DNA from: an uncultured Candidatus Saccharibacteria bacterium
Lineage (GTDB): Bacteria > Patescibacteriota > WWE3 > UBA101185 > UBA10185
Reading direction: 5' to 3'
Assembly (NCBI GenBank): GCA_964490125.1
Contig: CAZBAJ010000001.1
Coordinates: 3,573-67,572, forward strand
Length of the DNA stretch: 64,000 bases
Shown here: positions 11,337-59,992 of the stretch, piece by piece
Numbering within the stretch: the first letter of the stretch is position 1
Layout: each line of letters starts with the position of its first letter
Program-made: the position numbers and the translations under genes
The notes under the pieces: model-generated
What the model was told of the DNA's origin: nothing
The model's input: only the letters and a program-made list of their open reading frames with translations
The model's database searches: none

Positions 11337-11372
11337 AGGCGCCTTAATTTGTTTTCATGCTATTATTAAAAA

Positions 11373-42747: not shown

Positions 42748-42783
42748 TTGTTTTTAGTTTAAAGCCTTTTATACTTTAATTCA
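42748..42783 (+). promoter_or_regulatory. promoter TTGTTT-16-TATACT for HelD-like gene, leaderless geometry
   Basis: -35 42748-53, -10 42770-75, ATG 42783; AT-rich junction DNA. Confidence 0.45.
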
Positions 42784-44795
42784 TGACCTACAAGGAAATA
42801 TATTCCTTTGAAAATAAGGTGCTTAAAGGTTTTATAGGTAGCATAGAAGAATTTATTAAAAATGAGGCTTTTGAGTTAGATAACATCTTAAAACAATATG
42901 AGAAGGAGTTTAGAAAGGTGAATGAAGGCTGGAATAATGAGGATAGAGCAGAAGCCATCTATTTAGCGAACGAACTGTTAAGACGAAACCTGTTTCAAGC
43001 TCGAACTTCTTATCTAGGTGCATTACGCACTACTGAAAATTCGCCATATTTTGCTCACATAGATATACTACACCAACCATCAGGAATGTTGGAGACCTTT
43101 TATTTAGGTAAGGTCGCTTATACTTCAAAAGATAAGGAAATAGCTATTACTGATTGGCGAAGCCCCGTAGCCTCACTGTATTACACTTACGCTTTTCCTA
43201 CCAAAAATGCAGAATACTCCGTTGTTGTAGATAAAGACCCCGTAGAGATAGAAAAATATGTCTGCGAGCTTGTGCTTAGAAGAGCAATAGACATTGAAAA
43301 CAAAAGGCTTGTTAATGTTTTTGATAGTGGGAATAAATTTATGCTTTCTAAAATTGAACAAAAAGCAGGCGGTTTGCTCGAGGATATTATTGAAACCATC
43401 CAGCTAGATCAAGATCTGATTATTCGCCTACCTTTATATAATAATATTATTGTCCAAGGTGTTGCAGGAAGCGGTAAAACAACCCTAGCTTTACACAGAG
43501 TTTCGTATCTTTTTTATAACTATGCCCGTTTACTTAAACCACAAAACACCTTGTTTCTGTCATCCTCAAAAACGCTTATAAACTATTTAGCCAAAAGCCT
43601 TCCTGGAATGGGTATAACTGATATTAATTGTTATTCCTTACGAGACTTTTTACTTAAAACTTTAGTAGAAAACGGTATTAAAGTTAAACCTCGTGCTCAA
43701 ATTCAGCCTATCGGAGACTTGGCTGAGTTTACAGATAAGTTTGATAACTTTTTGGATGCTACTGAGGTTAGATTGTTAGAAGATTTGGATTCAAGCTTAT
43801 TTGATAGATTTGCACTTAAAACTTACAACCTGAAACGCGCAAGGTCCCGCCTGACTTCAAAATCTTATATGGAAAAACTTGATACACTATCCAATGATTT
43901 AGCCGAGATGAATAAAGAGTTAAGATTGTATGATGACCCTGCAACGCAGTACGATGAGGCACGCATTCACGGTGTTAAAAAAACCATTAAGGTACTTAAA
44001 AACCAGCTCGATCCTGCTAAATTGTACAGCAATTTTTGTCTTTACGATTTGAGTTTAAATCACTTGTCTGCCTTATATCTATTGGCGGATAGATTAGGCG
44101 CCATTTCTTATAAGGATTACGATTTGGTCTTTGTGGATGAAGCTCAAGATTTTAATCCTCTACATTTAAGATGTATAAAAACACTCTCATCTAGGAATGT
44201 CTTTAATTTTTTTGGCGACTTAAATCAGGCAATTTACAGTAAAGATCACATTAAATCGTGGGACTGCATTTCTGATATGTATGGTATCAATAAATTGCAA
44301 CAATTTAGTCTTACCAGAAGCTACCGTTCAACTAAGAGCATAGTTTCTAAAGCCACGGATATATTAAGAGCAAAAGGAATTACTGATAATCTTCCTGAAC
44401 CCGTTTCTCGTACCGGAGAACCGACAATTGAACAAAGATTTGATCGTTTAGATAGCATGATGGCGACTCTTGTCGATGCTGTAAAACAGGTAAGAAAACA
44501 CAGAGCTAAGTCTATTGGCATCATCTGCTCGTCACAAAGTCAGGCTGATATTGTCAGCAGGCATTTTAGAGCTAAGGGGATGCAGTATTTTAGTATCACC
44601 GAAGGTTTCGACGATTACTCCAAATACGGCATTTTTATCGTAGCACCAAGCCTGGTTAAAGGGTTAGAATTTGACACCGTTTTTATTTTAGATGCCGGGG
44701 GCGGTGAGTTTGCTGATGTTGACGAGGGTCATTTTCGTAAATTTGTGGCAATGACGCGTGCAATGAGTAGCTTATACATATATAGCCTAAATTAA
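42783..44795 (+). CDS. UvrD-like SF1 helicase, HelD / helicase IV-like
   Basis: N-terminal domain with YFAHIDI and ITDWRSPVASLYY (HelD-type DWRAPIA.LYY motif); Walker A GVAGSGKTTLALHR; VFVDEAQDF; C-terminal RSYRST, VKGLEFD, MTRA motifs. Confidence 0.8.
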   Translation: MTYKEIYSFENKVLKGFIGSIEEFIKNEAFELDNILKQYEKEFRKVNEGWNNEDRAEAIYLANELLRRNLFQARTSYLGALRTTENSPYFAHIDILHQPSGMLETFYLGKVAYTSKDKEIAITDWRSPVASLYYTYAFPTKNAEYSVVVDKDPVEIEKYVCELVLRRAIDIENKRLVNVFDSGNKFMLSKIEQKAGGLLEDIIETIQLDQDLIIRLPLYNNIIVQGVAGSGKTTLALHRVSYLFYNYARLLKPQNTLFLSSSKTLINYLAKSLPGMGITDINCYSLRDFLLKTLVENGIKVKPRAQIQPIGDLAEFTDKFDNFLDATEVRLLEDLDSSLFDRFALKTYNLKRARSRLTSKSYMEKLDTLSNDLAEMNKELRLYDDPATQYDEARIHGVKKTIKVLKNQLDPAKLYSNFCLYDLSLNHLSALYLLADRLGAISYKDYDLVFVDEAQDFNPLHLRCIKTLSSRNVFNFFGDLNQAIYSKDHIKSWDCISDMYGINKLQQFSLTRSYRSTKSIVSKATDILRAKGITDNLPEPVSRTGEPTIEQRFDRLDSMMATLVDAVKQVRKHRAKSIGIICSSQSQADIVSRHFRAKGMQYFSITEGFDDYSKYGIFIVAPSLVKGLEFDTVFILDAGGGEFADVDEGHFRKFVAMTRAMSSLYIYSLN

Positions 44796-44878: not shown

Positions 44879-45172
44879 TTAAATTAGCTTTTGCGACGAT
44901 AACATTCGCGTAAGCTCTTGTCTTAATTGGGAGAAACATTTTTCCAGCTCAATAACCCTTTGGTTGAGCAATATTCTATTGTCATTAGACATTTCCGTGA
45001 AACTGACATTAAACTCATTAGCAATCTGTGCTAAGACCCTAACTGTGGGAATAGCTCGACCTGTTTCGTACGCGGAAACGCTTTTTCCGGAGATGCCTAC
45101 TTTTTGTCCAAAGCGCTCCTGCGATAAATTTAGACTACACCTTAAATACTTAAGTTGATCACAAACATGCAT
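44879..45172 (-). CDS. XRE-family helix-turn-helix transcriptional regulator
   Basis: LSQERFGQKVGISGKSVSAYETGRAIPTVRVLAQIANEFNVS Cro/C1-type HTH. Confidence 0.75.
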   Translation of the reverse strand: MHVCDQLKYLRCSLNLSQERFGQKVGISGKSVSAYETGRAIPTVRVLAQIANEFNVSFTEMSNDNRILLNQRVIELEKCFSQLRQELTRMLSSQKLI

Positions 45173-45292
45173 ATTAACCTTTCCGGACAGGAAATTCTAT
45201 TGAAACTAGATGTCAAGATGTTGTCACATCTCTTAGGATTAATTATATTGCATACACACTTGTTATTTCAATATGAAAGGAGGTGAAAAAAT

Positions 45293-45877
45293 ATGACAAC
45301 CAGAAAATATGCAATAGGTCTTATGTCGTTAGCAATAGTGGCGGTTGGACTTATGGGTGTGGCGTATGCAGCTTTTACTGACCAGTCTAAGTTTACAGGT
45401 TCTAGGTTTAGCATAGCTAGTGCGGATATAAAGCTTCTCAACGACTTAGCAGGTGGTACAGGTGTGTCAAATCTTGTGGATACAAAACCGGTGCCTTCTT
45501 ACGATAATATTTCTCCGGGTTGGGTTTCTGACTATCTTGTTAAGTTGTACAACAATGGGACGCAGGCGGTAACTCTTACATCTAGCATGGATTATCTTAC
45601 GACAAATGATCCGTCAACCATTAGAGAGGTTTTGTATATGGAGCCGTATGACTGGAATGATGCAGATAACGACGGAGTGTTGGATGACGGGGAACAGGGT
45701 GTTTCTTGGGGCAGAAAGGCGTTTACGGCGTGGAAGACTACCGGGTTTAACTTTGGGCAACTAGACGCGGGAGTTGTTAAGCCGTTGATTATGAGATTTT
45801 CCGTGGGGAATGTTACTAACGCTAAGATGGGCGCGGTTGGAATCTTTGATTTTATGTTTGATTCGGTTGGCATTTAG
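45293..45877 (+). CDS. secreted TasA/camelysin-like protein with SipW-cognate-class signal peptide
   Basis: signal peptide then AYAAFTDQSKFTGSRFSIASADIKL resembling the AAF[ND]D...F..G motif of TasA/CalY; strong SD AAAGGAGGTGA; followed by sipW-like gene. Confidence 0.6.
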   Translation: MTTRKYAIGLMSLAIVAVGLMGVAYAAFTDQSKFTGSRFSIASADIKLLNDLAGGTGVSNLVDTKPVPSYDNISPGWVSDYLVKLYNNGTQAVTLTSSMDYLTTNDPSTIREVLYMEPYDWNDADNDGVLDDGEQGVSWGRKAFTAWKTTGFNFGQLDAGVVKPLIMRFSVGNVTNAKMGAVGIFDFMFDSVGI

Positions 45878-45908
45878 TTTGGTAGTTGGAGGTTACGCAA
45901 GGCGAATA

Positions 45909-45936
45909 GTTGTTTCCGGAACAACCTCTGCAGAGG
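45909..45936 (+). promoter_or_regulatory. two adjacent GC-rich hairpins between TasA-like gene and sipW-like gene (possible attenuator/processing site)
   Basis: GTTGTTTCCGGAACAAC imperfect palindrome and CCTCTGCAGAGG perfect 12-nt palindrome; no T-run. Confidence 0.3.
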
Positions 45937-46002
45937 CAAAGTCGTCAATTTGCTTACGCAGACCTGCCCGCTTTGTTTTAAGCCCTGAAGCAATCTACAA
46001 AT

Positions 46003-46554
46003 ATGTCTAAATTGTTTTTAAAAACTTTTGTTGGATTAGTCGTATTGGGTGGATTGGTTTATTACAGCGTGCAAAATAATGTCCGACTATTTTTTGTTGT
46101 TACGGGTTCCATGGAACCTGTGATTCCTACAAAGTCGATTATTTTATCTAGAAAAATTTCTGGAGACACCGTAAAAGCAGGTGCGGTTATTGTTTTTAAC
46201 GATCAAGCTACTAAACATGTTACGGCGCACAGAGTTAAGGAGGTTATAGCGGAAGGTTTTGTAACCAAAGGCGATGCCAACGAGTATCAGGATCGTAGTT
46301 TAGTCCAGCCAGCTGAATTGTTGGGGCGGGTATTTTTTGTCGTCCCTATTGTTGACGCTGTAAGCGTTTTCACCCAAGTCGGACTATTAATACTGATCTT
46401 TATGCTAGGTGTTTTAGTACGGAGATTTTTGGTATGCTTAAAGCATGGTTTTTCCTGTCCGACCGCAACACTTAACGCGCTTTTTAGACTTAGTGTTTTT
46501 AGGCGCCCCAAGGCGACTTTTTGTAATAGGTCGACGGGTTTTGGCGCTTACTAA
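46003..46554 (+). CDS. signal peptidase I, archaeal/ER type (SipW-like)
   Basis: VVTGSMEP (Ser), AHRV (His), KGDAN boxes of SipW-type peptidases; N- and C-terminal TM helices. Confidence 0.8.
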   Translation: MSKLFLKTFVGLVVLGGLVYYSVQNNVRLFFVVTGSMEPVIPTKSIILSRKISGDTVKAGAVIVFNDQATKHVTAHRVKEVIAEGFVTKGDANEYQDRSLVQPAELLGRVFFVVPIVDAVSVFTQVGLLILIFMLGVLVRRFLVCLKHGFSCPTATLNALFRLSVFRRPKATFCNRSTGFGAY

Positions 46555-49000
46555 TTATGAGACTTCGTTTAGCCTGCATCTGCGGTTGATTTTAACGCCG
46601 TTGTACGGGGATTATACCAAAGCCGGTAGAGTCATTGGTTTGGTTTTTAGGTTGCTGGCAATTTTTTACGGCCTCTTTGTTTTATTGTTTTTGGGTTTGG
46701 TAGTTTTGGTGTCGCCGTTGCTTTGGTATTTTGCTTTGTTTGGCGTATTTTATGTATTTAGATTGTGGGCGGTACTGGGTTTTATAGCGTTTTTTGCCTT
46801 GTGGTGGAAGTATACGCAAAATAAACCGACAAAGTTGGGAGAATATCGTCCGTGGGTAGCTGATGTCGTCCAAAATATTAAAATTAGGGGGAATTTAGAG
46901 GTTAGGGATTTTATTACTTCCCCGGTGCTTGCGGACTTTTTTAGTCGGTTGGAACTTACCAAAACCGATTTTGCTAACGAGCTTACCAAACTTTACTCCT
47001 ATGAGGAGTGCGTTAGACAAATATCTACTTGGGAAATTAAAGCCAAAGACTACTTACCAAAATTTGAGTCACTTTTTATAGAACCGGAGCAGGTGTTTTT
47101 GGCAGTTTTGTCGACCTTACCTAATTTAGAAAGATTTATGGCTAAGTACAATTTAATACTTAGCGACTTTGAAGGTTGCGCCAAGTGGTTAATAGAGCGG
47201 CGCGACGATAAGGAACGGGCGCATGTTTGGCAGGACTATTACAAACTGCCGGTAATGGGCGGAATTGGTAAGGGATTAACGGGCAGAGTAACGCCGGATC
47301 TGGACTCGGTGTCCACGGATTTTACCCAGTTAGTCAAAAAGGGTTTGGTAGAAAAAACCTATTGGCGTAAAGAGGAAATCAAGCGCGTAGCGGATCTTTT
47401 GGGTGGGTCTAACAGGAATGTGTTGATTGTAGGCGCACCCGGTGCCGGCAAAACCGGCATTGTTAAAGGCATTGCTTGGAGCGTAATTAGAGGAACGCAG
47501 TTTGACCAGTTAAAGTTTAAACGGATTGTAAGTTTAGAGGTCGGCAAGGTTCTGGCGGGAACAAAAAGCGCCGGAGATGTGGCGGACAAGCTTAAAAAAG
47601 CGGTGGAGGACGCTTTGGGCGCGGGTGATGTTATAATTTTTGTGGACGACATTCACACGCTTATTGCCGGTTCCGCGGTTGAGGATACCAAAACCAGCTC
47701 TGCCTACACTGTTCTTACTAATTATCTGGCGGATGGTCGGTTGCAATTTATTGGCGCCACCAACATAGAAAATTATCGTAAATATATAGAACCAAACGGT
47801 TCGTTTGCTCAGCTGTTTCAAATTGTCGAGGTCCCCCCGTCGTCCAAAGAAGAAACCTTAGAAATAATAAAAGTTAAAGCGGAAATTTTGGAGCAACAGT
47901 TTAAAGTCAAAACTTCCTTTACTGCGCTTACCAAAATTGTGGAGCTGGGTGACAAGCTAATTCACGAGCGGGTTTTTCCGGACAAAGCGGTGGAGATTTT
48001 AAATAGGTGCGTTTCGCAGGTTGCAAAAAGTACGCACTTTGTAACCGTCGATTTGGTTTTGCAAACGCTTTCAGAGATTACGCATATTCCGGTGTCGGCG
48101 GTTACTAACGATGAGTCGCAAAAACTGCTAAATATAGAAATGGAGATGAAAAAGCGGGTTATCGGCCAGGACGACGCCATAAACATGATAGGTTCGGCGC
48201 TTAAACGGGCGCGGGCGGGTATTAGAAACGATAAAAAACCCATGGCAAGCTTTTTGTTTGTGGGAACAACGGGCGTGGGAAAAACGGAAACGGCAAAAAC
48301 CTTGGCGCGGGTGTATTTTGGTGACGAAAAGCTAATGATTCGGCTTGATATGAGTGAGTATCAGCAGGTTGACAGTATTGACAGGCTAATTGGCGCGCCC
48401 AACGGTTCCACTAAAGGTGTGTTGACGGAGGCGGTTAGAAGTCGCCCATTTGCCCTAATTCTGTTGGACGAAATTGAAAAGGCGCACCAAAACATACTGT
48501 TGGCTTTTTTGCAGGTGTTGGACGACGGCAGACTAACGGATTCTTCTGGCACAACGGTTGATTTTACCAATACCATTATAATAGCAACCAGCAATGTGGG
48601 GACCCGGTCAATTCAGGAGGTTTTTGGCAGAAACGGCACTTTTGAGGAAATGAAGGAAGTTGCTACAAAGGATGTCCGGGAGAAATTTGCCCCGGAGTTT
48701 TTAAATAGGTTTAACGGGATTATCGTATACAAGCCGCTTTCTATGGAATCGGTTCAAAAAATTGCGGACATCATGCTTGGTAGTGTAAGAAAAATGGCGG
48801 AGGAAAAAGGCATTAAAGTTAGTTTTAAACCGGAGCTTATGGGGGAACTTTTAAAGCGCGGTTATAGCCCGGAGTGGGGCGCCCGGCCCATGGCGCGGGT
48901 AATAGAAGAAAGCGTTATGAACTATCTGGCCATTAAAATTTTGGCAAAGGAGATTGTGGCAGGCGATTCGGTGGAGTCAGGGACGGAGGTTTTTAGCTAG
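46541..49000 (+). CDS. membrane-anchored Clp/Hsp100-like ATPase with two AAA+ modules
   Basis: N-terminal multi-TM region replaces Clp N-domain; NBD1 LIVGAPGAGKTGIVKGIA..IFVDDIH; NBD2 LFVGTTGVGKTETAKTLA..LLDEIEKAH; sensor EFLNRFNGIIVYKPLS. Start uncertain: no in-frame ATG after sipW stop, so TTG 46541 or 46586 is assumed; ORF-track ATG at 46445 overlaps sipW by 110 nt. Confidence 0.75.
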   Translation: MALTNYETSFSLHLRLILTPLYGDYTKAGRVIGLVFRLLAIFYGLFVLLFLGLVVLVSPLLWYFALFGVFYVFRLWAVLGFIAFFALWWKYTQNKPTKLGEYRPWVADVVQNIKIRGNLEVRDFITSPVLADFFSRLELTKTDFANELTKLYSYEECVRQISTWEIKAKDYLPKFESLFIEPEQVFLAVLSTLPNLERFMAKYNLILSDFEGCAKWLIERRDDKERAHVWQDYYKLPVMGGIGKGLTGRVTPDLDSVSTDFTQLVKKGLVEKTYWRKEEIKRVADLLGGSNRNVLIVGAPGAGKTGIVKGIAWSVIRGTQFDQLKFKRIVSLEVGKVLAGTKSAGDVADKLKKAVEDALGAGDVIIFVDDIHTLIAGSAVEDTKTSSAYTVLTNYLADGRLQFIGATNIENYRKYIEPNGSFAQLFQIVEVPPSSKEETLEIIKVKAEILEQQFKVKTSFTALTKIVELGDKLIHERVFPDKAVEILNRCVSQVAKSTHFVTVDLVLQTLSEITHIPVSAVTNDESQKLLNIEMEMKKRVIGQDDAINMIGSALKRARAGIRNDKKPMASFLFVGTTGVGKTETAKTLARVYFGDEKLMIRLDMSEYQQVDSIDRLIGAPNGSTKGVLTEAVRSRPFALILLDEIEKAHQNILLAFLQVLDDGRLTDSSGTTVDFTNTIIIATSNVGTRSIQEVFGRNGTFEEMKEVATKDVREKFAPEFLNRFNGIIVYKPLSMESVQKIADIMLGSVRKMAEEKGIKVSFKPELMGELLKRGYSPEWGARPMARVIEESVMNYLAIKILAKEIVAGDSVESGTEVFS

Positions 49001-49022
49001 TGTTTATTATATAATTACGACT

Positions 49023-49580
49023 ATGGGGGACGAAGCCATGAATACAAAAAACTATATTGAGGAACTTAGAGCAGAAATCGACCAAATCCCCAACGAATCC
49101 ATGCGACTTTGTATGCGGGATTATTTACAAGCGCGGGAGCAAACCAGAGATATTCTAGCATTGGTTCCGGAGGATTTGTTGGACTATAAAGTTGCGCCAG
49201 GTGAAGAAGTCCAATCCCTTAGGGAAAATTTTGCAGAACTTGCACGCGTGGAAGCTAGTTTAATTAGAGGTTTACAAAGTGGACGAAGGGTACACAGTGG
49301 CGGTCACAATGTCCTGCCCGAACTACCCAAGAAAGAAGAGATTTTAAACGCTTATGAAAAATTGGATCGTGAAATGTTTACTTTGCTAAAAAATCCAGCC
49401 TTTGATCCCAAAGATACCTTTATTTATGCTGGAGAAAATGGAACCGAGCAAACTCTTAGGAAAGGCGGATCAGTTTGGTATTTCTTTTATCACGAAATGA
49501 AGGAATTGGGGTCAATAAGGGCAAAGCTGGATGGTGTTGGAATAGAACCGCCAGAATCCTACAAAAAGGCTTGGGGTTAA
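49023..49580 (+). CDS. hypothetical protein (possibly DinB/helical-bundle-like)
   Basis: ORF directly after Clp-like gene; ATG 49023; no confident family assignment. Confidence 0.45.
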   Translation: MGDEAMNTKNYIEELRAEIDQIPNESMRLCMRDYLQAREQTRDILALVPEDLLDYKVAPGEEVQSLRENFAELARVEASLIRGLQSGRRVHSGGHNVLPELPKKEEILNAYEKLDREMFTLLKNPAFDPKDTFIYAGENGTEQTLRKGGSVWYFFYHEMKELGSIRAKLDGVGIEPPESYKKAWG

Positions 49581-49582
49581 TA

Positions 49583-50470
49583 CTACCCATGGATTATTCT
49601 AAACTTTCGGTTTGAGTTAAAAATTCTTACTAATTTTTCAAAATTTTCATCGGGGTTTTGCAGTAGGCGTGCTAGGTTGTCTATTTCTCGTAGGTCGTTT
49701 TCTTTTATTGTTGGGAATACTTTTAAAAAGGCCATATCTACGGTGTTAGTATAAATAGGCTCATTATTCATTAGGCAGTGAAAATCGTAAAAGAGTTCCC
49801 ATGCTATGACGACTAGTCCTTGCGTACCTCCACTATTTTGAAAATAACCCGGATTAACTTTGCCGCTCCTTACCCTAAGCCAAGCATCAGCCGAGAAATC
49901 AAATAAGTCTTTAGGTAAGTCGTAGGGGTCGAATTTAATATAAGGTTCTATGCTGACATCGACATCTATAGATATCCAGCGGCTTTCAACAATATTCCAA
50001 TACTGGGTTATCCAATGATCCCAACTGCACCCCTTCATATCTTCGTATTCGAAATAAGGAGCAAAACCCGATCTGACGCGAGCGGGAATCCCCCTTGTTT
50101 TTAGCATCGATGCCACAAGTATTGCTACATTTCTACAACTAACAATTAAGCTATTTTCTTCTGTACATTCTAAAGTTAGACCCCGTGGGTCTCTCCTAAA
50201 AAGCTCCGAAAGCATCGAAGATGTCGTTGTGAAAACATCGTCCTCTCTGCACCTGTACCAAGGTACTTTTGTCATATCGCCATAGCGCAGGTCTTTGTTG
50301 GTTTGGGTGTTTCCGATTTCCAGAGCGTGTGCGTCGATGACACTTTTTCTAATTAAGTATCCAATTTTCTCTATGTCACTCGTTGGCAAACTCTTTAGAT
50401 AATCGGCATAACAGCCGGGAAAGGTTGCGTGCGAGTATTTTGTGTAGTAATCCAAGATAGTTTGATTCAT
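49583..50470 (-). CDS. transglutaminase-like cysteine-protease-fold protein
   Basis: VSCRNVAILVASMLKTRGIPARVRSGF (Cys), SWDHW (His), downstream Asp: Cys-His-Asp core of transglutaminase-like superfamily. Confidence 0.65.
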   Translation of the reverse strand: MNQTILDYYTKYSHATFPGCYADYLKSLPTSDIEKIGYLIRKSVIDAHALEIGNTQTNKDLRYGDMTKVPWYRCREDDVFTTTSSMLSELFRRDPRGLTLECTEENSLIVSCRNVAILVASMLKTRGIPARVRSGFAPYFEYEDMKGCSWDHWITQYWNIVESRWISIDVDVSIEPYIKFDPYDLPKDLFDFSADAWLRVRSGKVNPGYFQNSGGTQGLVVIAWELFYDFHCLMNNEPIYTNTVDMAFLKVFPTIKENDLREIDNLARLLQNPDENFEKLVRIFNSNRKFRIIHG

Positions 50471-50507
50471 GGGTGAATATTACAACCGAAAAATTTTAAT
50501 TACAACT

Positions 50508-51305
50508 TCATTCAATCGGTAAGAAAATCTCAAAAACTTGTTGGGTTGTGTCTGCGTTTACTTTCCAATATATTTCAAAGTCGGAAACTTTATTTTTCAC
50601 TTTGATTCTGTTGATCCTGCAATATTTTTCCAACTCTTTCCAAAACAGTGAAAGCATTTCTCCAGCACCACTGTGTTTATAAGAAATCACCTTTCCTGGG
50701 CTAAAGGTCATATGTCGTACAACATTCTTAAACTCCGGTTTTATGGCGATATCTTTGTCACTAAAAACGCATATTTTAATGTGGCAATTTTTTGGACGAT
50801 AGCCCTGATCCTCAAAAACAGCCATTGTGGTTAAACCGTCGTGAGGTTTTTCGATCATATTTATTAGCTCGCTACAATACATGCCGATTTTTGAGTAGGC
50901 GCCTATTTTGTCGATGTAGTAAACGCTAAGAGGTTGAAATACCGAAATTTTAGGTTTGATCATGGTCCGATTTGTTTTAAGATTTTCCAAGAAATTATCA
51001 ATATTTTTTAAGTTAAATTCTAGAGTACTCATTTCCTTTAGTATTGTCGGGCGTTTTTCCTTAAATAGTTCAACCAATTTTCCATGATTATTTAGATACT
51101 CCTTTATTTCTTTTAGAGAAATACCTAGCGTTGTGAGTAGTAAAACCATCTGATAATCTAAAATCTGTCTTTGGGAATAATACCGAAACCCCCGCAAGTC
51201 GATCCTTTCCGGTTTTAGGACACCTTTTTGGTCGTAGAATAAAATCGTTCGTTTTGTTGTACAGGCGAGTTTTGCGAACTCGCCCGGTGTTATAAAAGCG
51301 TCCAT
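50508..51305 (-). CDS. MerR-family transcriptional regulator with C-terminal GyrI-like effector-binding domain (BmrR-like)
   Basis: N-terminal MerR HTH (ITPGEFAKLACTTKRTILFYDQKGVL), long coiled linker, about 150-aa C-terminal domain of GyrI-like size. Confidence 0.8.
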   Translation of the reverse strand: MDAFITPGEFAKLACTTKRTILFYDQKGVLKPERIDLRGFRYYSQRQILDYQMVLLLTTLGISLKEIKEYLNNHGKLVELFKEKRPTILKEMSTLEFNLKNIDNFLENLKTNRTMIKPKISVFQPLSVYYIDKIGAYSKIGMYCSELINMIEKPHDGLTTMAVFEDQGYRPKNCHIKICVFSDKDIAIKPEFKNVVRHMTFSPGKVISYKHSGAGEMLSLFWKELEKYCRINRIKVKNKVSDFEIYWKVNADTTQQVFEIFLPIE

Positions 51306-51307
51306 AC

Positions 51308-51345
51308 TTGACTATAACCTCGCGTTACACCTTATTATAGCATCC
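51308..51345 (+). promoter_or_regulatory. MerR-type promoter for the UvrA paralog: TTGACT - 19 bp - TATTAT
   Basis: TTGACT 51308-51313, TATTAT 51333-51338, 19-bp spacer, ATG at 51349; divergent MerR gene starts at 51305. Confidence 0.55.
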
Positions 51346-51348
51346 ATT

Positions 51349-53607
51349 ATGTCTAATATAGTTATAAAAGGAGCGCGCGAGCACAACCTTAAAGGTGTTG
51401 ATATAACGATACCTCGCAACAAGGTTGTGTGTTTTGTGGGTGTGTCGGGTAGCGGAAAGTCCACAATTGCCTTCGATATCGTCGCAAAAGAGGGGCAAAG
51501 GCAATATTTTGAAAGTTTGTCGGCTTATGCCCGCAGGTACTTGCAAAAGAGCAATCGTCCTGATATTGACGATATCAAGGGAATATCTTCCACAGTTATT
51601 ATTAGTCAAGACAGGCTTACCAAGAATCCGCGTTCGACTGTTGGTACTGTGACTGAAACTTACACCTACCTTAGGTTGTTGTACTCTAGAGTAGGTTGGC
51701 CTCCAATGGACTCTTCCAACTATTCGTTTAATCATCCCGACGGTTTTTGTCCAAGATGTAAGGGTCTAGGTAGGGCCATGGATGTGGACATAAATAAATT
51801 AGTCGATGTGAGTTTATCTCTTAACGAGGGGGCTATAAAATATAGCAACTGGCGAGTGAATAGTATGTATTGGAAGATTGTTAGAGAAAGCGGATATTTT
51901 GATATGGACAAAAAGCTTAAAGATTTTAGTGAAAGCGAAATGAACAAGTTGCTCTATTCCAAGAAAGAGACACTGGATGACAGGGTAGGAAACGGTGTAA
52001 TCCACCCAACCTATAAGGGTATAGTAACTCATCTGCTCGGGCGTGGTTCTAGTGCAGTTAGAAGTGTAAACGATGAGGAACTAAGCTATTTTAGTTATAT
52101 AGATTGCCCTTTGTGTCACGGTTGGAGAATAAGTCAAAAAGCTTTGGAGGTTAAGTTAAATGGATTGAATATCGGCGAAGTCGGTAATTTGCCTATCTAC
52201 GATTGTCTAAGTTTTGTGCAAAGTATTAAGCACCCGCATGCCGATGTAATTAAGCCCAGACTGGAACTCCAACTCCAGCATTTAATAAACGTGGGTGTAG
52301 GGTATTTATCACTAAACAGGACTACGGATACTCTGTCGGGTGGAGAGTCGCAAAGAATAAAAATGGCAAGACAGCTCGGTTCCGACTTGACAGAGACAAT
52401 TTATGTTTTGGACGAGCCAACTGCGGGTCTGCATCCTCGCGATGTCGACAAGGTTATTGAGAACTTAAGAAAATTAAAGGACGGCGGAAACACTGTTTTA
52501 ATAGTTGAGCATGATCCGGAGGTTATAAAGTCGGCTGACTACATCATTGAAGTTGGACCTGGCGGTGGAAAAAAGGGTGGAAACATTGTTGCAACGGGTT
52601 CTTTAACCGAGATTAAAGCCAATCCAACATCTATAACAGCCAAGTACATAAATGGCAGTGACAAGATACGGTTGCCTGAAGAATATAGAGAAAGAAACGG
52701 TAATATAAGTATTGCAAATGCTTCAACCCACAACCTAAAAAATATAAGCGTTGACATTCCGACAGGCGTGTTGGTGGCGTTAACCGGTGTTTCAGGTAGT
52801 GGGAAGAGCTCGTTGGTGGAGGAAATTTGTAGGCAGTACCAGCACAAAGTCACGCTTGTTGATCAGAGCGCTGTGGGTGCTAACCAAAGAGGCTGTATTG
52901 CTACCTATACGGGAACCTTTGACATTATCAGAAAGCTCTTTGCTCAAGAAAATAAAGTCAGCGTTAGTTTATTTAGCTACAACAGTAGCGGTGCTTGTGA
53001 AGACTGCAAAGGTTTAGGTCATATGGATGTTGATATGAATTTTTTAGGTGACATCAAGATTAAGTGTCCCAAGTGTAATGGGAAAAGGTATAAGCAGGAA
53101 GTATTGAAGTATTTATATAAAGGTAAGAGCATAGATCGGGTTTTAGAAAGTACAGTTGAGGAAGCGCTAGAGTTTTTTGATCAAAAAGAAATAAAAGTTA
53201 AGCTTGCAATGTTGGCAGAAGTCGGACTAGATTATATAGAAATTGGTCAGTCTTTGGACACCTTATCGGGCGGGGAATCTCAAAGATTAAAGTTAGCCAG
53301 TCGTTTGCAAGCAAAGGGTGAGTTTTATATCTTGGACGAGCCCACTTCCGGCCTTCACCTTGCTGATGTAGAAAAGTTACTCAAACTTTTGAATCGCCTG
53401 GTTGACAATGGGAACACTGTTTTGGTAGTCGAGCATAATTTAAAGATTATTGTGTCCAGCGATTGGGTTATCGATTTAGGACCCGATGGTGGCGATAAAG
53501 GCGGGGAACTGATCGTCCAAGGAACACCAAAAGATATTTTAAGTTGTGACCAGTCGTATACCGCAAAGTATTTAAGGGGAACGGTAAGTTTGGAAAATAA
53601 AGCTTAA
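51349..53607 (+). CDS. UvrA paralog (class II, short; DrrC/UvrA2-like)
   Basis: two ABC ATPase modules (GVSGSGKST twice), four CxxC zinc modules, ABC signature LSGGESQR twice; 752 aa, lacking UvrB-binding/insertion domains. Confidence 0.85.
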   Translation: MSNIVIKGAREHNLKGVDITIPRNKVVCFVGVSGSGKSTIAFDIVAKEGQRQYFESLSAYARRYLQKSNRPDIDDIKGISSTVIISQDRLTKNPRSTVGTVTETYTYLRLLYSRVGWPPMDSSNYSFNHPDGFCPRCKGLGRAMDVDINKLVDVSLSLNEGAIKYSNWRVNSMYWKIVRESGYFDMDKKLKDFSESEMNKLLYSKKETLDDRVGNGVIHPTYKGIVTHLLGRGSSAVRSVNDEELSYFSYIDCPLCHGWRISQKALEVKLNGLNIGEVGNLPIYDCLSFVQSIKHPHADVIKPRLELQLQHLINVGVGYLSLNRTTDTLSGGESQRIKMARQLGSDLTETIYVLDEPTAGLHPRDVDKVIENLRKLKDGGNTVLIVEHDPEVIKSADYIIEVGPGGGKKGGNIVATGSLTEIKANPTSITAKYINGSDKIRLPEEYRERNGNISIANASTHNLKNISVDIPTGVLVALTGVSGSGKSSLVEEICRQYQHKVTLVDQSAVGANQRGCIATYTGTFDIIRKLFAQENKVSVSLFSYNSSGACEDCKGLGHMDVDMNFLGDIKIKCPKCNGKRYKQEVLKYLYKGKSIDRVLESTVEEALEFFDQKEIKVKLAMLAEVGLDYIEIGQSLDTLSGGESQRLKLASRLQAKGEFYILDEPTSGLHLADVEKLLKLLNRLVDNGNTVLVVEHNLKIIVSSDWVIDLGPDGGDKGGELIVQGTPKDILSCDQSYTAKYLRGTVSLENKA

Positions 53608-53674
53608 CCACTAGTTTCGTACTCTCAAAAACCCAGGTCACAATAATGATAAAATTATCTACACTAAGAAAAAT

Positions 53675-54574
53675 TTGGCAGTAATTATGGTCCCAAAAAT
53701 AACCGAACTCCAAGCCAAGTCGATTTTTACCAAATCCGGATTGCCTGGGTCGGATTGGGTAATTAATCCGTACAACGGTTGTTTATTTGGTTGCATGTAT
53801 TGTTACGCGGCGCAAATTGCTAGGTGGAAACATCCTAATGAGCAGTGGGGTACCTATTTAGATGTCAAACTAAAAGCCCCGGAGTTGCTAAAACAAGAGC
53901 TTGCCAAGTTGGAAAAACGCCATAAAACCAAGGATTTTGGCTCGGTATTTTTTAGCTCTGTTACGGATCCGTATGTGGGCGTGGAGGCAAAATACCGGCT
54001 AACCCGGCAGTGTTTAGAGGTTTTGGCGGACTTTGGATACGCGGGTGCGGTTTCGGTTCAGACCAAGTCGCCCCTAGTTACGCGGGATATTGATATGCTT
54101 GCCCGCCTAAAAAATGCTTCTGTAGGTTTTACTATTACTTCTTTGGACGACAAAATCTCCGCTTTTTTGGAGGTAATGGCGCCACCTATAAGTCATCGGT
54201 TGGATGCGTTAAAAAAGTTGCACGACGCAGGGATTTCCACCTACGCATTTGTCGGTCCTATTTTGCCGCATTTTCTCGTCGACCAGCAGATTTTAAAGAT
54301 ACTGTTAGATGAGTTGCAGGAAGTTGGCGTGACCGAGGTTTGGTTTGAGCATATAAATTTAAGTCCAAAAATTAAGGAACGCCTGTACGACTATTTGCGT
54401 AAAAAGGCTCCGGAGTTGATTGAGGTTTTTGACCAAGCTAATACACAGGAGTATCGTAATCAGTTGGACGACTTTATTGTTGCGGAAATGAAATCCCGTG
54501 GGTTGACGCTAGGGCTTAACAAAGTGATCCACCACCGGAGTTTGCCAAAGAAAGACCTTATTAATCTTGCTTGA
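53675..54574 (+). CDS. radical SAM protein, SplB / DNA-repair-photolyase-like (COG1533)
   Basis: CxxxCxxC cluster in PYNGCLFGCMYCYA near N-terminus; about 300 aa TIM-barrel size. Confidence 0.75.
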   Translation: MAVIMVPKITELQAKSIFTKSGLPGSDWVINPYNGCLFGCMYCYAAQIARWKHPNEQWGTYLDVKLKAPELLKQELAKLEKRHKTKDFGSVFFSSVTDPYVGVEAKYRLTRQCLEVLADFGYAGAVSVQTKSPLVTRDIDMLARLKNASVGFTITSLDDKISAFLEVMAPPISHRLDALKKLHDAGISTYAFVGPILPHFLVDQQILKILLDELQEVGVTEVWFEHINLSPKIKERLYDYLRKKAPELIEVFDQANTQEYRNQLDDFIVAEMKSRGLTLGLNKVIHHRSLPKKDLINLA

Positions 54575-54664
54575 TTTTTTCTAGGGGATTTGGTAACATA
54601 CGGCAGATCGAAAGATTAAGAATTCGGTGGCTAAAGGGCTCCTTTACGGAGTCCTTTGTGCATC

Positions 54665-55408
54665 TTAAGGAGTTATTTCCTTTCTCCAACAGATAAAATC
54701 CTTAATATCGAAGATGTCGAAGATGAATAAACCCTCCTTTTTAAGCTCGTTTAGTTCGGCCGAAATTCTTCCAGCCGTCCCAAAAACTACAGCGTTTCTA
54801 TTGCTTTTTAAGATTCTTCTAAGCGGGTCGTAAAAGTCGCTGTCTCCACTCCACAATATAAAATTTTGGGTTTTTCCTTTTTCGCTTTCCAAGAGCATGT
54901 CCACCGCCATCTCGACATCAAAGTTGCATTTTCTCTCCTCGATAAAATATTCTCCCCTTCTGTTCATATCTACAAAACAACCATTTAGGTATTTGATTGT
55001 TGGTGAGGTATATCTTCTAAGTAAGGCTGGGCTTATAAATTGGCGAAGTAACTCTGTTGAAGTCGGTACGATCCTTCTTGCGTCTATTTTTAATCTCATT
55101 ATCTTTACGGGTTTTGTTTGCAATGTGTAACCCAGTCTATTTATGTCATATATTTCTTTTTGCGCGTTAGGGTCGTTTTTAAGGTAGCCGTTGTAAAGGC
55201 TAACCGATTTAACGGTATCGAAAGAGTCCAAGAACTGTTTTAGCCTCTTTAATTCAATATGCCAACCAAGCTTTGTACTCCAAGGTCTTACATTAGCATA
55301 GTCAATATAAACCGCGGTAGGTTGGGCAAACACGGCTTCTAGTTTTGTTATTACATTGGGATGTAAATTAGCAAGCACCTTTATTTTGTCGGTTTTTGGT
55401 GTAAACAT
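54665..55408 (-). CDS. NYN-domain (LabA-like PIN-fold) protein
   Basis: AVYIDYANV..., FDVEMAVDML, WSGDSDFYDP acidic motifs. Confidence 0.7.
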   Translation of the reverse strand: MFTPKTDKIKVLANLHPNVITKLEAVFAQPTAVYIDYANVRPWSTKLGWHIELKRLKQFLDSFDTVKSVSLYNGYLKNDPNAQKEIYDINRLGYTLQTKPVKIMRLKIDARRIVPTSTELLRQFISPALLRRYTSPTIKYLNGCFVDMNRRGEYFIEERKCNFDVEMAVDMLLESEKGKTQNFILWSGDSDFYDPLRRILKSNRNAVVFGTAGRISAELNELKKEGLFIFDIFDIKDFICWRKEITP

Positions 55409-55601
55409 AAATGCTCAGAAGTGTTCAGGTCATACTATCAATATTTGTCCAAAAGTCAATACATATTTATTGTTAGGTACCCATTTATTCGGGCGACTTG
55501 TGAACTAATGCCCTTTCCTTCAATTCAAATAAACGCCTTTCTCTAAACCGTTTTAGTACTATTTTAATGCGCTATATCCCTAGTCGTACTATAATACCCA
55601 C

Positions 55602-56777
55602 ATGTTAATAGAACTCTCCCCCGACCAAGATCTTGCCCGCAAGTTTATTATGGATTGGTACAACTCAAAAAGTCGCCCGCCGTACATTACTTTGGGAGGC
55701 TATGCGGGCACGGGCAAGACCACGCTCATTACTTATTTACGGCGCCAGCTCAAAGTCGACCATAAAAAGCTAAAAGTGGCGTTTTGTGCTTATACGGGCA
55801 AGGCCACGCAGGTTTTAAAACGCAAGCTGGCGGAGCATAACGCTGTGCATTTTGGCGACGAAGTGCGGACGATCCACTCGCTTATTTACAAAGCTATAAC
55901 GGACGAACATGGGTTTATTATTGGTTGGCGACGGCGGGACAGCCTGGACACGGAGCCTAATTTACTAATTGTAGACGAAGCAAGTATGGTTGATCAGGAA
56001 ATTTGGCAGGACTTACTTTCTTACCATGTACCTATTATAGCGGTGGGCGACCATGGTCAGCTTCCCCCCGTGTCGGGTGACTTTAACTTAATGCAAAACC
56101 CGCACTTGAAGTTGGAAAAAATCCATCGCCAGGCGGAGGAAAATCCAATTATTAAACTTTCTGTTATAGCACGGGAAACCGGTTTGATACCGCACGGTGA
56201 CTACGGCGACCATGTTTTTAAAGCAACGCCTGCTGATGCGTCCACCATGCTAGAAAACATTTTTTGTAACTTTTCTTCCGACCAGTTAGTTTTATGCGGT
56301 TATAATTCAACCAGGGTTAAGCTAAACGCCACAATAAGGAACGCCTTGGGTTTTGAAACGCCGGAACCGTACCCGGGTGACAGAGTGATTTGTCTGCGCA
56401 ACAATAGGCAAAAAGAGGTTTACAACGGGATGTTGGGGTACCTAGAGTATATTAATAGGCTGTCTAAAAATAAATACCTAATTGAGGTCGCCATGGATTC
56501 TTATGAAGAAGGTCATACCTATTCCGGAGTTGTTTCCGCGGAGCAGTTTGGCGCGCAAAAAACACTAAATAACATTTTAGGGTACGCAAAAACTAAGGAG
56601 ATGGACTTGTTTGACTTTGGGTACGCGCTTACAGTTCACAAAGCGCAGGGGAGTCAGGCAAAAAAGGTGGTGGTGTTTGAGGAGCGCTTTTCCCGCGACA
56701 CTGAAGAGGACTGGCGCCGTTGGCTGTACACCGCTGTCACCCGCGCGGAGGAGGAACTTTTAATTGTAGGGAATTAA
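55602..56777 (+). CDS. RecD/Dda-like SF1B DNA helicase
   Basis: GGYAGTGKTTL Walker A, LLIVDEASMV Walker B, C-terminal ...VTRAEEELLIV. Confidence 0.8.
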   Translation: MLIELSPDQDLARKFIMDWYNSKSRPPYITLGGYAGTGKTTLITYLRRQLKVDHKKLKVAFCAYTGKATQVLKRKLAEHNAVHFGDEVRTIHSLIYKAITDEHGFIIGWRRRDSLDTEPNLLIVDEASMVDQEIWQDLLSYHVPIIAVGDHGQLPPVSGDFNLMQNPHLKLEKIHRQAEENPIIKLSVIARETGLIPHGDYGDHVFKATPADASTMLENIFCNFSSDQLVLCGYNSTRVKLNATIRNALGFETPEPYPGDRVICLRNNRQKEVYNGMLGYLEYINRLSKNKYLIEVAMDSYEEGHTYSGVVSAEQFGAQKTLNNILGYAKTKEMDLFDFGYALTVHKAQGSQAKKVVVFEERFSRDTEEDWRRWLYTAVTRAEEELLIVGN

Positions 56778-57311
56778 AACGCCTTCGGTTTAAATCCCGG
56801 TTTGTTTAGTATTTTTATACCGTTCCGTTTCTTGGTTATGGCAAATAATCCCTCTTTTTCAATTTCGCCCGCCCGAGCGTTTGTAAGTTTTTCGCTGGCT
56901 AAGGCGCCGTACACTTTGGTATTAATTAATAAATGGCTGTGAGAACTTTTAAAACGGGGGATGATATTTTCAACCAAGTCCACGACATCATTGTAGCTTG
57001 CTGTTTTTACTACTTTTATTACCACAGCATTGACTGGATTGTGCGCTACAACATCATAAATAAAACCGTCAATATCGGTGAGGTTTTTAATAATAATGTC
57101 AAACCTTGTCTTACGAAGTCTTTTCCTATGCTGGAGGTAAAAAATATAGACGGTCTTTAAAGCCAATCTCCTCATCGGGAAAATTCTCTTTGTACAGTTT
57201 TTGAAATTCTCTGTCGATTTGTCGCTCAAGTCGTTTTTCTTCACGGGTATCGGCGATAAGTTGCTTATACTTTGCAAATAACTCATCTTTGGTTAGATTC
57301 TCTATCTTCAT
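56774..57311 (-). pseudogene. hypothetical gene split into two overlapping frames at an A6/T6 tract (possible frameshift or sequencing error)
   Basis: ORFs 57126..57311 (61 aa) and 56774..57286 (170 aa, N-terminal 55 aa look non-protein-like) overlap in different frames around homopolymer 57139..57144. Confidence 0.3.
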
Positions 57312-57339
57312 TCGTAAATTTTAACAAAATTCTTGGAAG

Positions 57340-57801
57340 TTGGTCTATAATAAGGCTATGGAAAGTTTAGTCGACGAATTAAGGTTGGCGCGAACGGCTG
57401 TTATTGAGGCAGTTTCTAAAGTCGCCAGGAATAAACGAGAGGTTGTGTTTTTAGGCGACTGGACATTAAAGGATTTAATCGCGCATTTGACGGGCTGGGC
57501 TAATTATCAGCTTGAGGTTATTAAAGATGTCCAAACAGGCAGGATTCCCAAAGAACCCGGAAGTATTGACGGGTTTAATGAAAAATCTACTAGAAAAAGG
57601 GCGACGCAGTCTTGGGAAAAAACATATTCAGAATTTTTGGACGCTAGCCAAAAACTTATCGACACCTATCAGAAGTTACCAAACGATTTGTGGGATACCT
57701 TGCTTTGGGAAGACAAAAAGACGACTTTGAAAAAGTTTATTAATATTGAGATACGACATTACAAGAAAACACATTTGCCACAAATTTTAAAACTGGTATA
57801 G
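57340..57801 (+). CDS. ClbS/DfsB-family (DUF1706) four-helix-bundle protein
   Basis: WTLKDLIAHLTGW matches the W[ST][VL]KD[VL][IL]AHL..W hallmark of ClbS-like proteins. Confidence 0.6.
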   Translation: MVYNKAMESLVDELRLARTAVIEAVSKVARNKREVVFLGDWTLKDLIAHLTGWANYQLEVIKDVQTGRIPKEPGSIDGFNEKSTRKRATQSWEKTYSEFLDASQKLIDTYQKLPNDLWDTLLWEDKKTTLKKFINIEIRHYKKTHLPQILKLV

Positions 57802-57820
57802 CGTTTTGCAATCCCCGCTA

Positions 57821-58492: not shown

Positions 58493-58571
58493 AAGTGTAG
58501 TTTACTACACTAGAAGGCAGGTTGCGGACAGTATACAATTGCCGTACTAGTAAGATAGAGAGGAGGATACC

Positions 58572-58952: not shown

Positions 58953-58954
58953 GT

Positions 58955-59923: not shown

Positions 59924-59976
59924 AAGTCACACAAAAACAACTAAACCCCCGTAAATTAGAGTTCTAGCCTTATTTC

Positions 59977-59992
59977 TGGTACATTACCCCTA
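59977..59992 (+). promoter_or_regulatory. extended -10 TGgTACATT 6 nt upstream of prfB ATG (leaderless candidate)
   Basis: TG 59977-78, TACATT 59980-85, ATG 59992. Confidence 0.4.

Follow-up and report, generated by a model that had tools for sequence, protein, structure and literature searches.

What does a WWE3 bacterium make with a gene cluster that resembles the TasA fiber loci of Bacillus, and which of the contiguous genes contribute to the product? CPR/Patescibacteria are regarded as bacteria that live attached to host cells, with type IV pili as the appendage most often considered. The cluster lies at the end of a ribosomal-protein/rpoA/rplM-rpsI cluster in a CPR bacterium with a small genome (~0.9 Mb in one complete relative). 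A preliminary description of the 64,000-nt stretch of DNA analyzed here (the window) put forward six adjacent open reading frames as one candidate surface-fiber system, in parallel with the sinR/tapA-sipW-tasA locus of Bacillus subtilis. All six ORFs are present, spanning positions 44879–50470 (Table 1). Literature searches for TasA/SipW loci in CPR bacteria returned no paper; the sole relevant item found was a census that records homologs of PF12389 among Patescibacteria (PMC9245690).

Table 1 Features of the locus and related genes in the window.
Feature	Position	Strand	Basis
LepB signal peptidase	11370–12002		PF10502, 140 bits
XRE-family HTH regulator, 97 aa	44879–45172	-	PF01381 HTH_3, 53 bits
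Regulatory intergenic region	45173–45292	+	Promoter scan and alignment with three relatives
Candidate operator, partly palindromic conserved block TTCTAxTGAAACTAGA	~45192–45212		
Sigma-70-like promoter	-35 TTGTCA 45221–45226; -10 TATATT 45244–45249	+	Promoter scan
Shine-Dalgarno sequence AAAGGAGGTGA	45276–45286	+	Upstream of TasA-like gene
TasA-superfamily secreted protein, 194 aa	45293–45877	+	Fold, cleavage-site context, weak transitive HMM links
EF-hand-like loop of TasA-like protein	45659–45694		
SipW-type (ER/archaeal-type, Ser-His-Asp) signal peptidase I, 183 aa	46003–46554	+	TIGR02228
Membrane-tethered Hsp100/Clp-like double-AAA+ ATPase, 851 aa	46445–49000	+	AAA (D1), AAA_2 (D2), ClpB_D2-small
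Small ORF, DinB-like	48954–49580		Sub-threshold DinB matches only, 20 bits vs 23–25
Transglutaminase-like gene	49583–50470	-	PF01841, 24.2 bits vs 23, just above cut-off
prfB	59968–60993		Displaced from Clp-like gene by ~11-kb insertion

We compared gene content across 23 related WWE3-type loci (including L001–L016), 17 WWE3 lineages, and 36 non-WWE3 loci that carry a relative of the Clp-like ATPase. The only neighborhood that recurs in other WWE3 genomes consists of the XRE, TasA-like, and Clp-like genes, with the SipW-type gene in some loci, and it is too consistent for chance. The XRE gene, on the minus strand, and the TasA-like gene are found in all 17 lineages. Co-occurrence, a check named in the preliminary description, holds for these four genes but fails for the DinB-like and transglutaminase-like ORFs. 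The supported unit comprises three genes only, those for the putative XRE repressor, the TasA-like protein, and the SipW-type signal peptidase. Such a TasA/SipW module is known in kind; what is new is its divergent WWE3 version.

The TasA-like protein begins with a single N-terminal hydrophobic segment followed by AYAAFTDQSKFTGSRFS. Residues 1–26 form the signal peptide, with cleavage predicted at AYA↓AFTD, a P3–P4′ context that can be set against TWA↓AFND in TasA. The mature protein of 168 residues, a size close to that of CalY/camelysin, is acidic and contains neither cysteine nor histidine, a composition that suggests a structural rather than enzymatic role. The TIGR04088 model (cognate_SipW) aligns at the expected position, residues 13–37, at 14.3 bits (E = 0.035), below its cut-off of 19, and matches 11 of 25 family members (best E = 1.2e-4). 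PF12389, the check named in the preliminary description, gives no match to the window protein even at E ≤ 10, nor does the NCBIfam TasA model NF046066; each is matched by a single one of the 25 relatives (8.3e-6 and 7.3e-4, respectively). The protein therefore falls outside the TasA/camelysin family as these models define it, and its sequence marks it as a distant superfamily relative. When the family profile was searched against PDB sequences, no TasA chain was found and the only hit was a weak match to an SdrD calcium loop. Conservation within the family is highest in A27–L48 (AFTDQSKFxGSxFSxGSADLKL), the N-terminal strand right after the cleavage site. An EF-hand-like loop at D123–E134 (DADNDGVLDDGE), in which D123, G128, and E134 are invariant, resembles loops in the B repeats of SdrD, a wall-anchored adhesin.

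The modeled TasA-like protein has a jelly-roll/β-sandwich fold that superposes on TasA, with ~13% identity in the structural alignment. The best Foldseek matches are fiber subunits, with the TasA fiber first, followed by CanX, the 0406 filament, and AbpA; self-complemented FimA is also among the structural matches. TM-scores are low (0.31–0.41), and FimA-type pilins score alike. The earlier assignment of this gene as TasA-like is thus borne out at the level of the superfamily (Table 1). In the single-chain model, the N-terminal strand is of lower confidence (pLDDT ~66), as would fit a mobile strand. The donor strand in TasA fibers is the N-terminal strand after the cleavage site (PMC9674648), and A27–L48 is presumably its counterpart.

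The peptidase was correctly named in the preliminary description: it scores 71.1 bits against the TIGR02228 cut-off of 51.85, carries a predicted Ser-His-Asp catalytic triad (S36, H76, and D91), and has hydrophobic membrane segments at its N- and C-terminus, all of which assign it to the ER/archaeal-type signal peptidases I. S36, H76, K89, G90, D91, and N93 are invariant across the WWE3 homologs, and human SEC11C/SEC11A are the nearest solved relatives. Against NF046067, the Bacillus SipW equivalog, the protein reaches 51.8 of the required 190 bits; it is the same type of enzyme as Bacillus SipW and not an ortholog-level match. Since the window also encodes an ordinary LepB (Table 1), the SipW-type enzyme is an additional peptidase with a dedicated role, which is also the case in Bacillus. 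The gene is present at the locus in 10 of the 17 WWE3 lineages. In the other seven it is missing while the AF cleavage motif is kept, so either SipW is not strictly required or it is encoded at another site. MEWB01000001.1 is an example of a complete WWE3 genome with no SipW gene at the locus; no remnant was detected in these loci (hmmsearch --max on all ORFs of at least 25 aa).

Divergently upstream of the TasA-like gene lies the XRE gene, as described earlier, and a homolog with matching position and orientation occurs in all WWE3 loci whose sequence extends far enough on that side, making its product a candidate repressor of the module. No SinR chain was retrieved in a PDB search at E ≤ 1e-3. 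The best PDB match is PezA (1e-5), the best NCBIfam match is RstR (51 bits vs a cut-off of 80), and all matches are of the generic XRE kind. No similarity specific to a SinR-type biofilm repressor was found beyond the generic HTH_3 domain. The strong Shine-Dalgarno sequence noted previously is present, and alignment with three relatives reveals that it is conserved together with the -35/-10 region and the palindromic block, the last of which may be the operator. We found neither a terminator nor an attenuator in the gap from the TasA-like gene to SipW (RNA fold z-score -0.86) and no terminators among the TasA-like, SipW, and Clp-like genes. A scan of 42–52 kb against Rfam gave no match.

The Clp-like ATPase consists of an N-terminal helix and membrane hairpin (residues ~7–124, with a hydrophobic block at ~60–121), a Clp N-domain (~136–257), and the D1 (~286–528) and D2 (~533–844) AAA+ modules; together with the D2-small domain, these features place it in the broad Hsp100/Clp class. 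Unlike ClpB, ClpC, ClpA, and ClpV, it is anchored directly by its own membrane hairpin and lacks an M-domain, with 36 residues at the site compared with 97 in ClpC and 162 in ClpB, whose residues 394–508 have no counterpart. Aromatic pore-loop residues are absent from D1 and D2 across the whole family. In D1, K[ST]xG stands where other Clp proteins have K[YF]RG (KSAG for KYRG in the window protein); in D2, the GY[VI]GY motif is either deleted or exchanged for GSTKG (here in place of GYVGYEEGG). The ClpP-docking region is 5–7 residues shorter than in ClpC controls and has no LGF, and scores against the NCBIfam equivalogs are far below every cut-off. Two functional assignments were rejected on these grounds: a ClpB disaggregase, given the missing M-domain and aromatic pore loops and a TIGR03346 score of 501 vs 1232, and a ClpP-coupled ClpC/ClpA, given the absence of both an [LIV]-G-[FL] loop after D2 sensor-1 and the pore-loop tyrosines and a TIGR02639 score of 464 vs 993. 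The membrane-anchored double-AAA+ architecture of the preliminary description is confirmed, but a classical “unfoldase” is unlikely because the aromatic pore loops are missing in both rings family-wide. Relatives gathered by full-length and exhaustive protein searches (a search with the N-terminus only gave two matches, a prefilter effect) define a small, Patescibacteria-only family. Literature searches for a membrane-anchored Hsp100 in Patescibacteria found no paper. The protein is an unusual Hsp100 derivative worth separate study.

Does this ATPase serve the fiber? In the 36 non-WWE3 loci, no TasA-like, SipW, or XRE gene lies within 5 kb of the Clp-like gene. Of the 26 scan loci that include downstream DNA, 25 have prfB directly after it, as does L017, and secA is located ≤5 kb upstream in 10 loci. 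Since the Clp-like gene occurs there without TasA or SipW and flanked by prfB or secA, its adjacency to the fiber genes is best read as WWE3 synteny, and the gene probably has a housekeeping or secretion-associated function of its own, not the fiber-specific one first suggested. The opposing view, that in WWE3 the ATPase works with the fiber module and that TasA-like, SipW, and Clp-like genes form one export/assembly operon, we consider unlikely. Its mechanism would place the ATPase at the cytoplasmic membrane face near Sec, where the Clp N-domain would bind the abundant pre-protein or its uncleaved signal peptide; the enzyme would then either deliver the TasA-like pre-protein to the translocon or SipW peptidase or remove it from there. 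What gives it substance is that the TasA-like and Clp-like genes are adjacent on the same strand in all 17 WWE3 lineages, even where SipW is lost. Their adjacency is never broken, which leaves room for a real functional link, whereas RadC–TasA and Clp–prfB adjacency is broken several times and the flanking RadC, HelD, and prfB genes are rearranged. The SipW and Clp-like ORFs overlap by 44–110 nt (110 nt in the window, at the 3′ end of SipW) with no terminator found, and in L013–L015, which lack SipW, the Clp-like gene starts <100 nt after the TasA-like gene. The secA neighbor outside WWE3 hints at a secretion-related role, and TasA-type signal peptides jam LepB/Sec in E. coli (PMC10269814). 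The whole WWE3 region is syntenic, however (ribosomal protein genes, radC, prfB, ftsK, and rnj), and RadC–TasA spacing is equally tight, so that adjacency carries little weight; in L001 and L016, moreover, the TasA-like and Clp-like genes are 800 nt apart with opposite-strand ORFs between them. The lack of aromatic pore loops argues against canonical threading, and the searched literature on TasA or related fibers does not mention an ATPase (searches for an ATPase in TasA systems found no paper). A bolder version, in which the Clp-like protein (secA-clp-prfB elsewhere; tasA-like-(sipW)-clp-prfB in WWE3) is an unrecognized Sec-translocon AAA+ machine dedicated in WWE3 to the TasA-like precursor, strikes us as quite doubtful. 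Functional analogies for the Clp-like protein among Hsp100 ATPases are HSP101 of the Plasmodium PTEX exporter and Hsp93/ClpC at the chloroplast TIC translocon.

Two further readings concern the extent of the system and the state of its subunit. The proposal that the XRE, TasA-like, SipW, Clp-like unfoldase, small, and transglutaminase-like proteins jointly build and cross-link a surface fiber drew on the physical contiguity of the genes in the window and on a transglutaminase core that just passes the Pfam threshold, but the conservation analysis already contradicts it. None of the 23 related loci has a homolog of the DinB-like or the transglutaminase-like protein, the transglutaminase-like gene is on the opposite strand, and both genes sit in a lineage-specific insertion of ~11 kb that separates the Clp-like gene from prfB and also holds MerR/GyrI, UvrA-like, radical-SAM, NYN, and RecD-like genes. 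Neither protein has a signal peptide, hydrophobic transmembrane segment, or other export signal, which excludes extracellular cross-linking of the fiber; the transglutaminase-like protein is predicted to be cytoplasmic, and PDB sequence searches with both found no matches. Transglutaminase cross-linking was rejected given the missing export signal and co-occurrence, the gene is very probably not part of the module, and the joint system as a whole is highly improbable. It is rather unlikely, too, that the TasA-like protein is a monomer that binds Ca2+ and is secreted or wall-associated, for instance an adhesin or envelope component, and that it shares only the jelly-roll and SipW-type signal peptide with fiber subunits. 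The single subunit gene, the lack of a TapA/CapP-like nucleator or anchor, and the SdrD-like loop would suit such a protein, but the top structural matches are fiber subunits, conservation in the family peaks in the strand that is donated in TasA fibers (PMC9674648), and the lower confidence of this strand fits mobility. On balance, we think it fairly probable that the locus is a divergent WWE3 TasA/SipW secreted-fiber module, that the Clp-like ATPase is not dedicated to it, and that the DinB-like and transglutaminase-like genes are insertion cargo.

Under this preferred reading of a three-gene fiber module, an XRE repressor gene would lie back to back with the strongly expressed gene that encodes the pre-protein of 194 aa. 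Sec would export the pre-protein, and the dedicated ER-type peptidase encoded alongside would cut it at AYA↓AF, where Phe occupies P2′, the residue owing to which LepB-type peptidases handle the TasA site poorly. The mature jelly-roll protein most likely polymerizes outside the cell, each N-terminal strand being donated to the next subunit, and this is probably stabilized or triggered by Ca2+ at the conserved EF-hand-like loop. The product would be matrix or attachment filaments. The Clp-like gene is co-oriented and probably co-transcribed with the fiber genes, yet most likely encodes no dedicated fiber component, and the DinB-like and transglutaminase-like genes would be unrelated cargo.

The closest matrix-fiber loci are the SinR-controlled tapA-sipW-tasA of B. 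subtilis and sipW-tasA/calY of B. cereus. Shared with them are a secreted jelly-roll subunit, a signal peptide ending in x-aromatic-A↓A-F-x-D, and an XRE-family HTH regulator adjoining the operon. The parallel drawn in the preliminary description stands in these respects and for the SipW-type peptidase; it fails for SinR similarity and for TapA, as a family profile and motif scan detected no second SipW-cognate (TapA-like) protein in the window or related loci. The WWE3 locus further differs in its order (tasA-like, then sipW), in having no TapA/CapP-like accessory protein, in a regulator that is not detectably SinR-like, in the EF-hand-like Ca2+ loop, in the low identity to TasA and the failure of PF12389 to recognize the subunit, and in its small-genome CPR host and position at the end of a ribosomal-protein/rpoA/rplM-rpsI cluster. 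Archaeal relatives include the TasA-superfamily donor-strand fibers of Pyrobaculum (AbpA bundling pili) and Pyrodictium (CanX cannulae), as well as the Sulfolobus 0406 filament. The paper cited for AbpA reports that its operon has no dedicated signal-peptidase gene nearby, whereas such a gene adjoins the TasA-like gene in 10 of the 17 WWE3 lineages.

The “five-gene system” was thus over-extended; contiguity in a single compact genome misled. The Clp-like family, having lost threading elements thought essential and gained a membrane anchor, offers a test case for Hsp100 proteins without pore-loop tyrosines. If the ATPase were dedicated to exporting or clearing a jam-prone TasA-like precursor, no ATP-dependent accessory factor of a TasA-type fiber would precede it. 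The TasA-like family extends the TasA/AbpA donor-strand superfamily to sequences missed by current Pfam models. For the WWE3 bacteria themselves, a TasA-type fiber gene conserved throughout the group, with its own peptidase and strong expression signals, is a concrete candidate gene for filaments of a matrix or attachment type.

The 44.8–50.5 kb region lies directly 3′ of a long ribosomal-protein/rpoA/rplM-rpsI cluster, and the positions and family matches of its open reading frames (see table) agree with the individual gene descriptions in the preliminary description. That description combined the genes into a candidate five-gene surface-fibre system that includes an unfoldase and a putative cross-linking or protease enzyme. 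The XRE regulator, the TasA-like protein, and the SipW-type peptidase at its core do form a genuine, conserved module of familiar type, but the larger system is not supported.

Features of the window discussed in the text
Feature	Position	Strand	Matches and remarks
LepB, canonical signal peptidase I	11370-12002		PF10502, 140.6 bits
HelD-like helicase gene	42783-44795		between rpsI and XRE; NF041464, 240 bits, below cut-off
XRE HTH gene	44879-45172	-	PF01381, 53 bits
TasA-like ORF, 194 aa	45293-45877	+	no match to curated families
EF-hand-like loop, D123-E134	45659-45694
SipW-type signal peptidase	46003-46554	+	TIGR02228, 71.1 bits (cut-off 51.85)
SipW/Clp-like overlap	46445-46554		110 nt, different frames
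Double-AAA+ Clp-like ORF, 851 aa	46445-49000	+	Pfam AAA, AAA_2, ClpB_D2-small
Small DinB-like ORF	48954-49580	+	DinB matches, all sub-threshold
~11-kb insertion	49001-59967
Transglutaminase-core ORF	49583-50470	-, convergent	PF01841, 24.2 bits (cut-off 23)
MerR/GyrI-like regulator	50508-51305		in insertion
UvrA-like ABC ATPase	51349-53607		in insertion
Radical-SAM/spore-photoproduct-lyase-like gene	53675-54574		in insertion
NYN-domain gene	54668-55414		in insertion
RecD-like helicase	55584-56774		in insertion
prfB	59968-60993

The TasA-like protein displays a single N-terminal hydrophobic segment followed by AYA↓AFTDQSKFTGSRFSIASADIKL. The published TasA cleavage site is TWA↓AFND, with a P2′ Phe that has been linked to inefficient processing by LepB (PMC10269814). 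Of the family models named in the preliminary description, TIGR02228 scores above its cut-off for the peptidase, whereas for the TasA-like protein TIGR04088 aligns at the correct position with only 14.3 bits (cut-off 19) and PF12389 is not detected. A database search recovered 41 relatives with 46–100% identity, all from Patescibacteria metagenomes. TIGR04088 matches 11 of 25 relatives, while PF12389 (8.3e-6) and the NCBIfam TasA model match one each. In the family alignment, conservation is highest at the N-terminus of the mature protein, the stretch that acts as the donor strand in TasA fibres. We conclude that the 194-aa protein is a divergent TasA-superfamily subunit and infer that it polymerizes. 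A camelysin-type metalloprotease role is unlikely, as the mature 168-aa chain contains neither Cys nor His. The protein also carries an EF-hand-like 12-residue loop, DADNDGVLDDGE (D123-A-D-N-D-G-V-L-D-D-G-E134), with invariant positions 1, 6, and 12, which accounts for weak SdrD_B and EF-hand matches. The loop, of canonical Ca2+-binding type, is conserved family-wide, is preceded by an invariant Trp, and resembles SdrD B repeat loops.

Ser36, His76, and Asp91 of the peptidase are invariant among its WWE3 homologs, and human SEC11C and SEC11A are the solved structures most closely related to it. Its C-terminal tail, encoded where the SipW and Clp-like frames overlap, is kept in the close clade (loci L007, L009, L010, and L012) and absent from deeper WWE3 lineages, where the two genes lie 12–44 nt apart; conservation of the tail may simply mirror constraint on the Clp-like N-terminus. 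Since the window also encodes LepB, the organism possesses a general P-type and an extra ER-type peptidase, as does Bacillus, where the latter likewise sits beside a TasA-type substrate.

Among known systems, the Bacillus sipW-tasA and tapA-sipW-tasA loci come closest, sharing with the window the type of cleavage site, the subunit fold, the dedicated ER-type peptidase in addition to a LepB, and an adjoining XRE regulator. The window differs in its very low sequence similarity, its EF-hand-like loop, and its CPR host and, unlike Bacillus, no TapA/CapP-like partner was found in the window or related loci. A census had already recorded PF12389 homologs in Patescibacteria (PMC9245690), so the kind is already known; what the WWE3 family adds is a divergent new member, most of whose sequences escape Pfam. 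The XRE regulator is short and generic for an HTH_3 protein, and among solved structures it comes closest to PezA rather than to SinR. The stretch between its gene and the TasA-like gene contains a sigma-70-like promoter (TTGTCA-17-TATATT) along with a perfect Shine-Dalgarno sequence and a block that is partly palindromic, all conserved in relatives. No terminator-like structure separates the three plus-strand genes, and no Rfam family matches the region.

Genomic contexts were drawn from TasA-like homologs, a GTDB species-genome scan with the Clp N-terminus, and distant Clp-like family members, and were checked with purpose-built HMMs, yielding 17 distinct WWE3 lineages. Wherever the contig extends far enough, all 17 display the order rpsI, XRE (minus strand), optional RadC, TasA-like, optional SipW, and Clp-like. 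Ten lineages carry SipW; in the seven that lack it, the Clp-like gene usually follows the TasA-like gene directly. The cleavage motif is retained in both groups. In the RIFOXYC1_FULL_40_10 lineage (L001 8529-9337, equivalent to L016 6138-6940), a ~800-nt stretch takes the place of SipW; it has no detectable SipW remnant, and its two ORFs, of 126 and 108 aa, run on the opposite strand and match no family. RadC, found between the XRE and TasA-like genes in most other WWE3 genomes, is missing at that site here, and the HelD-like (RNA-polymerase-recycling helicase) gene occupies a position where most have nothing. A 2.5-kb contig labelled ‘Candidatus Bathyarchaeia archaeon’ (L009, JBAZEV010000237.1) carries TasA-like, SipW, and Clp-like genes, with a Clp-like N-terminus 80% identical to the window’s; it almost certainly stems from WWE3 and was mis-binned into an archaeal MAG.

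Ancestrally, the Clp-like gene is followed by prfB and then by ftsK and rnj on the other strand. The displacement of prfB in the window indicates that the genes from DinB-like through RecD-like form a ~11-kb insertion relative to other WWE3 genomes. Further genes accompany those tabulated, and the block has the appearance of an island of DNA-damage or stress genes. Because the DinB-like and transglutaminase-like proteins have no homolog in any related locus and no export signal, we dropped both from the proposed system.

Whether the ATPase belongs to the fibre module is a separate question. The TasA-like/Clp-like pair is never split in the 17 lineages, although neighbouring junctions are broken several times. 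However, synteny extends over the whole WWE3 region, and RadC and the TasA-like gene are packed as closely together as SipW and the Clp-like gene, so we read the adjacency mainly as lineage synteny. Scanning metagenome contigs with an alignment of distant non-WWE3 members yielded 35 loci (L024-L058); none of these, nor the separately fetched L017, contains a TasA-like, SipW, XRE, or rpsI gene within 5 kb of the Clp-like gene. Instead, of the 26 loci whose contigs continue downstream, 25 have prfB immediately 3′; secA lies ≤5 kb upstream in ten loci, directly adjoining in several. Outside WWE3 the conserved arrangement is thus secA-(x)-clp-prfB, making prfB and secA the family-wide partners. 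secA-prfB is a classical gene pair of Gram-positive bacteria. A functional link between the ATPase and the fibre module in WWE3 appears rather unlikely, though the unbroken TasA-like/Clp-like pairing speaks for it, as does the wider family's secA association, which hints at a membrane role in secretion. An ATPase goes unmentioned in the three papers examined for one, which deal with AbpA pili, tafi, and the TasA/CalY of B. cereus.

The first AAA+ module (D1) of the Clp-like protein aligns with residues 153-394 of T. thermophilus ClpB and the second (D2) with 508-836, indicating that the M-domain is missing. The post-sensor-1 loop has ClpB-like length without an LGF motif. Both rings retain an intact Walker A; Walker B reads DE in D2, and in D1 DD in the window’s clade and DE in deeper clades. 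The D1 pore loop is K-S-A-G instead of K-Y-R-G and the D2 loop G-S-T-K-G instead of G-Y-V-G-Y-E-E-G-G. Aromatic pore-loop residues are absent from both rings of every family member examined, whereas ClpC/ClpB controls aligned alongside retain them. The protein fits the broad Hsp100 definition but lacks the features that define ClpB, ClpC/ClpA, and ClpV-type equivalogs. An exhaustive search of its N-terminal 285 residues against 1.84 billion cluster representatives returned only 50 proteins, the named ones all WWE3 or ‘Patescibacteria group’. It represents a small Hsp100 family, restricted to Patescibacteria and comprising ~50 clusters at 50% identity, whose members lack the M-domain and the ClpP loop as well as the aromatic pore-loop residues. 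Tethered to the membrane and devoid of aromatic pore loops, this family is the most unusual finding of the analysis and merits its own follow-up.
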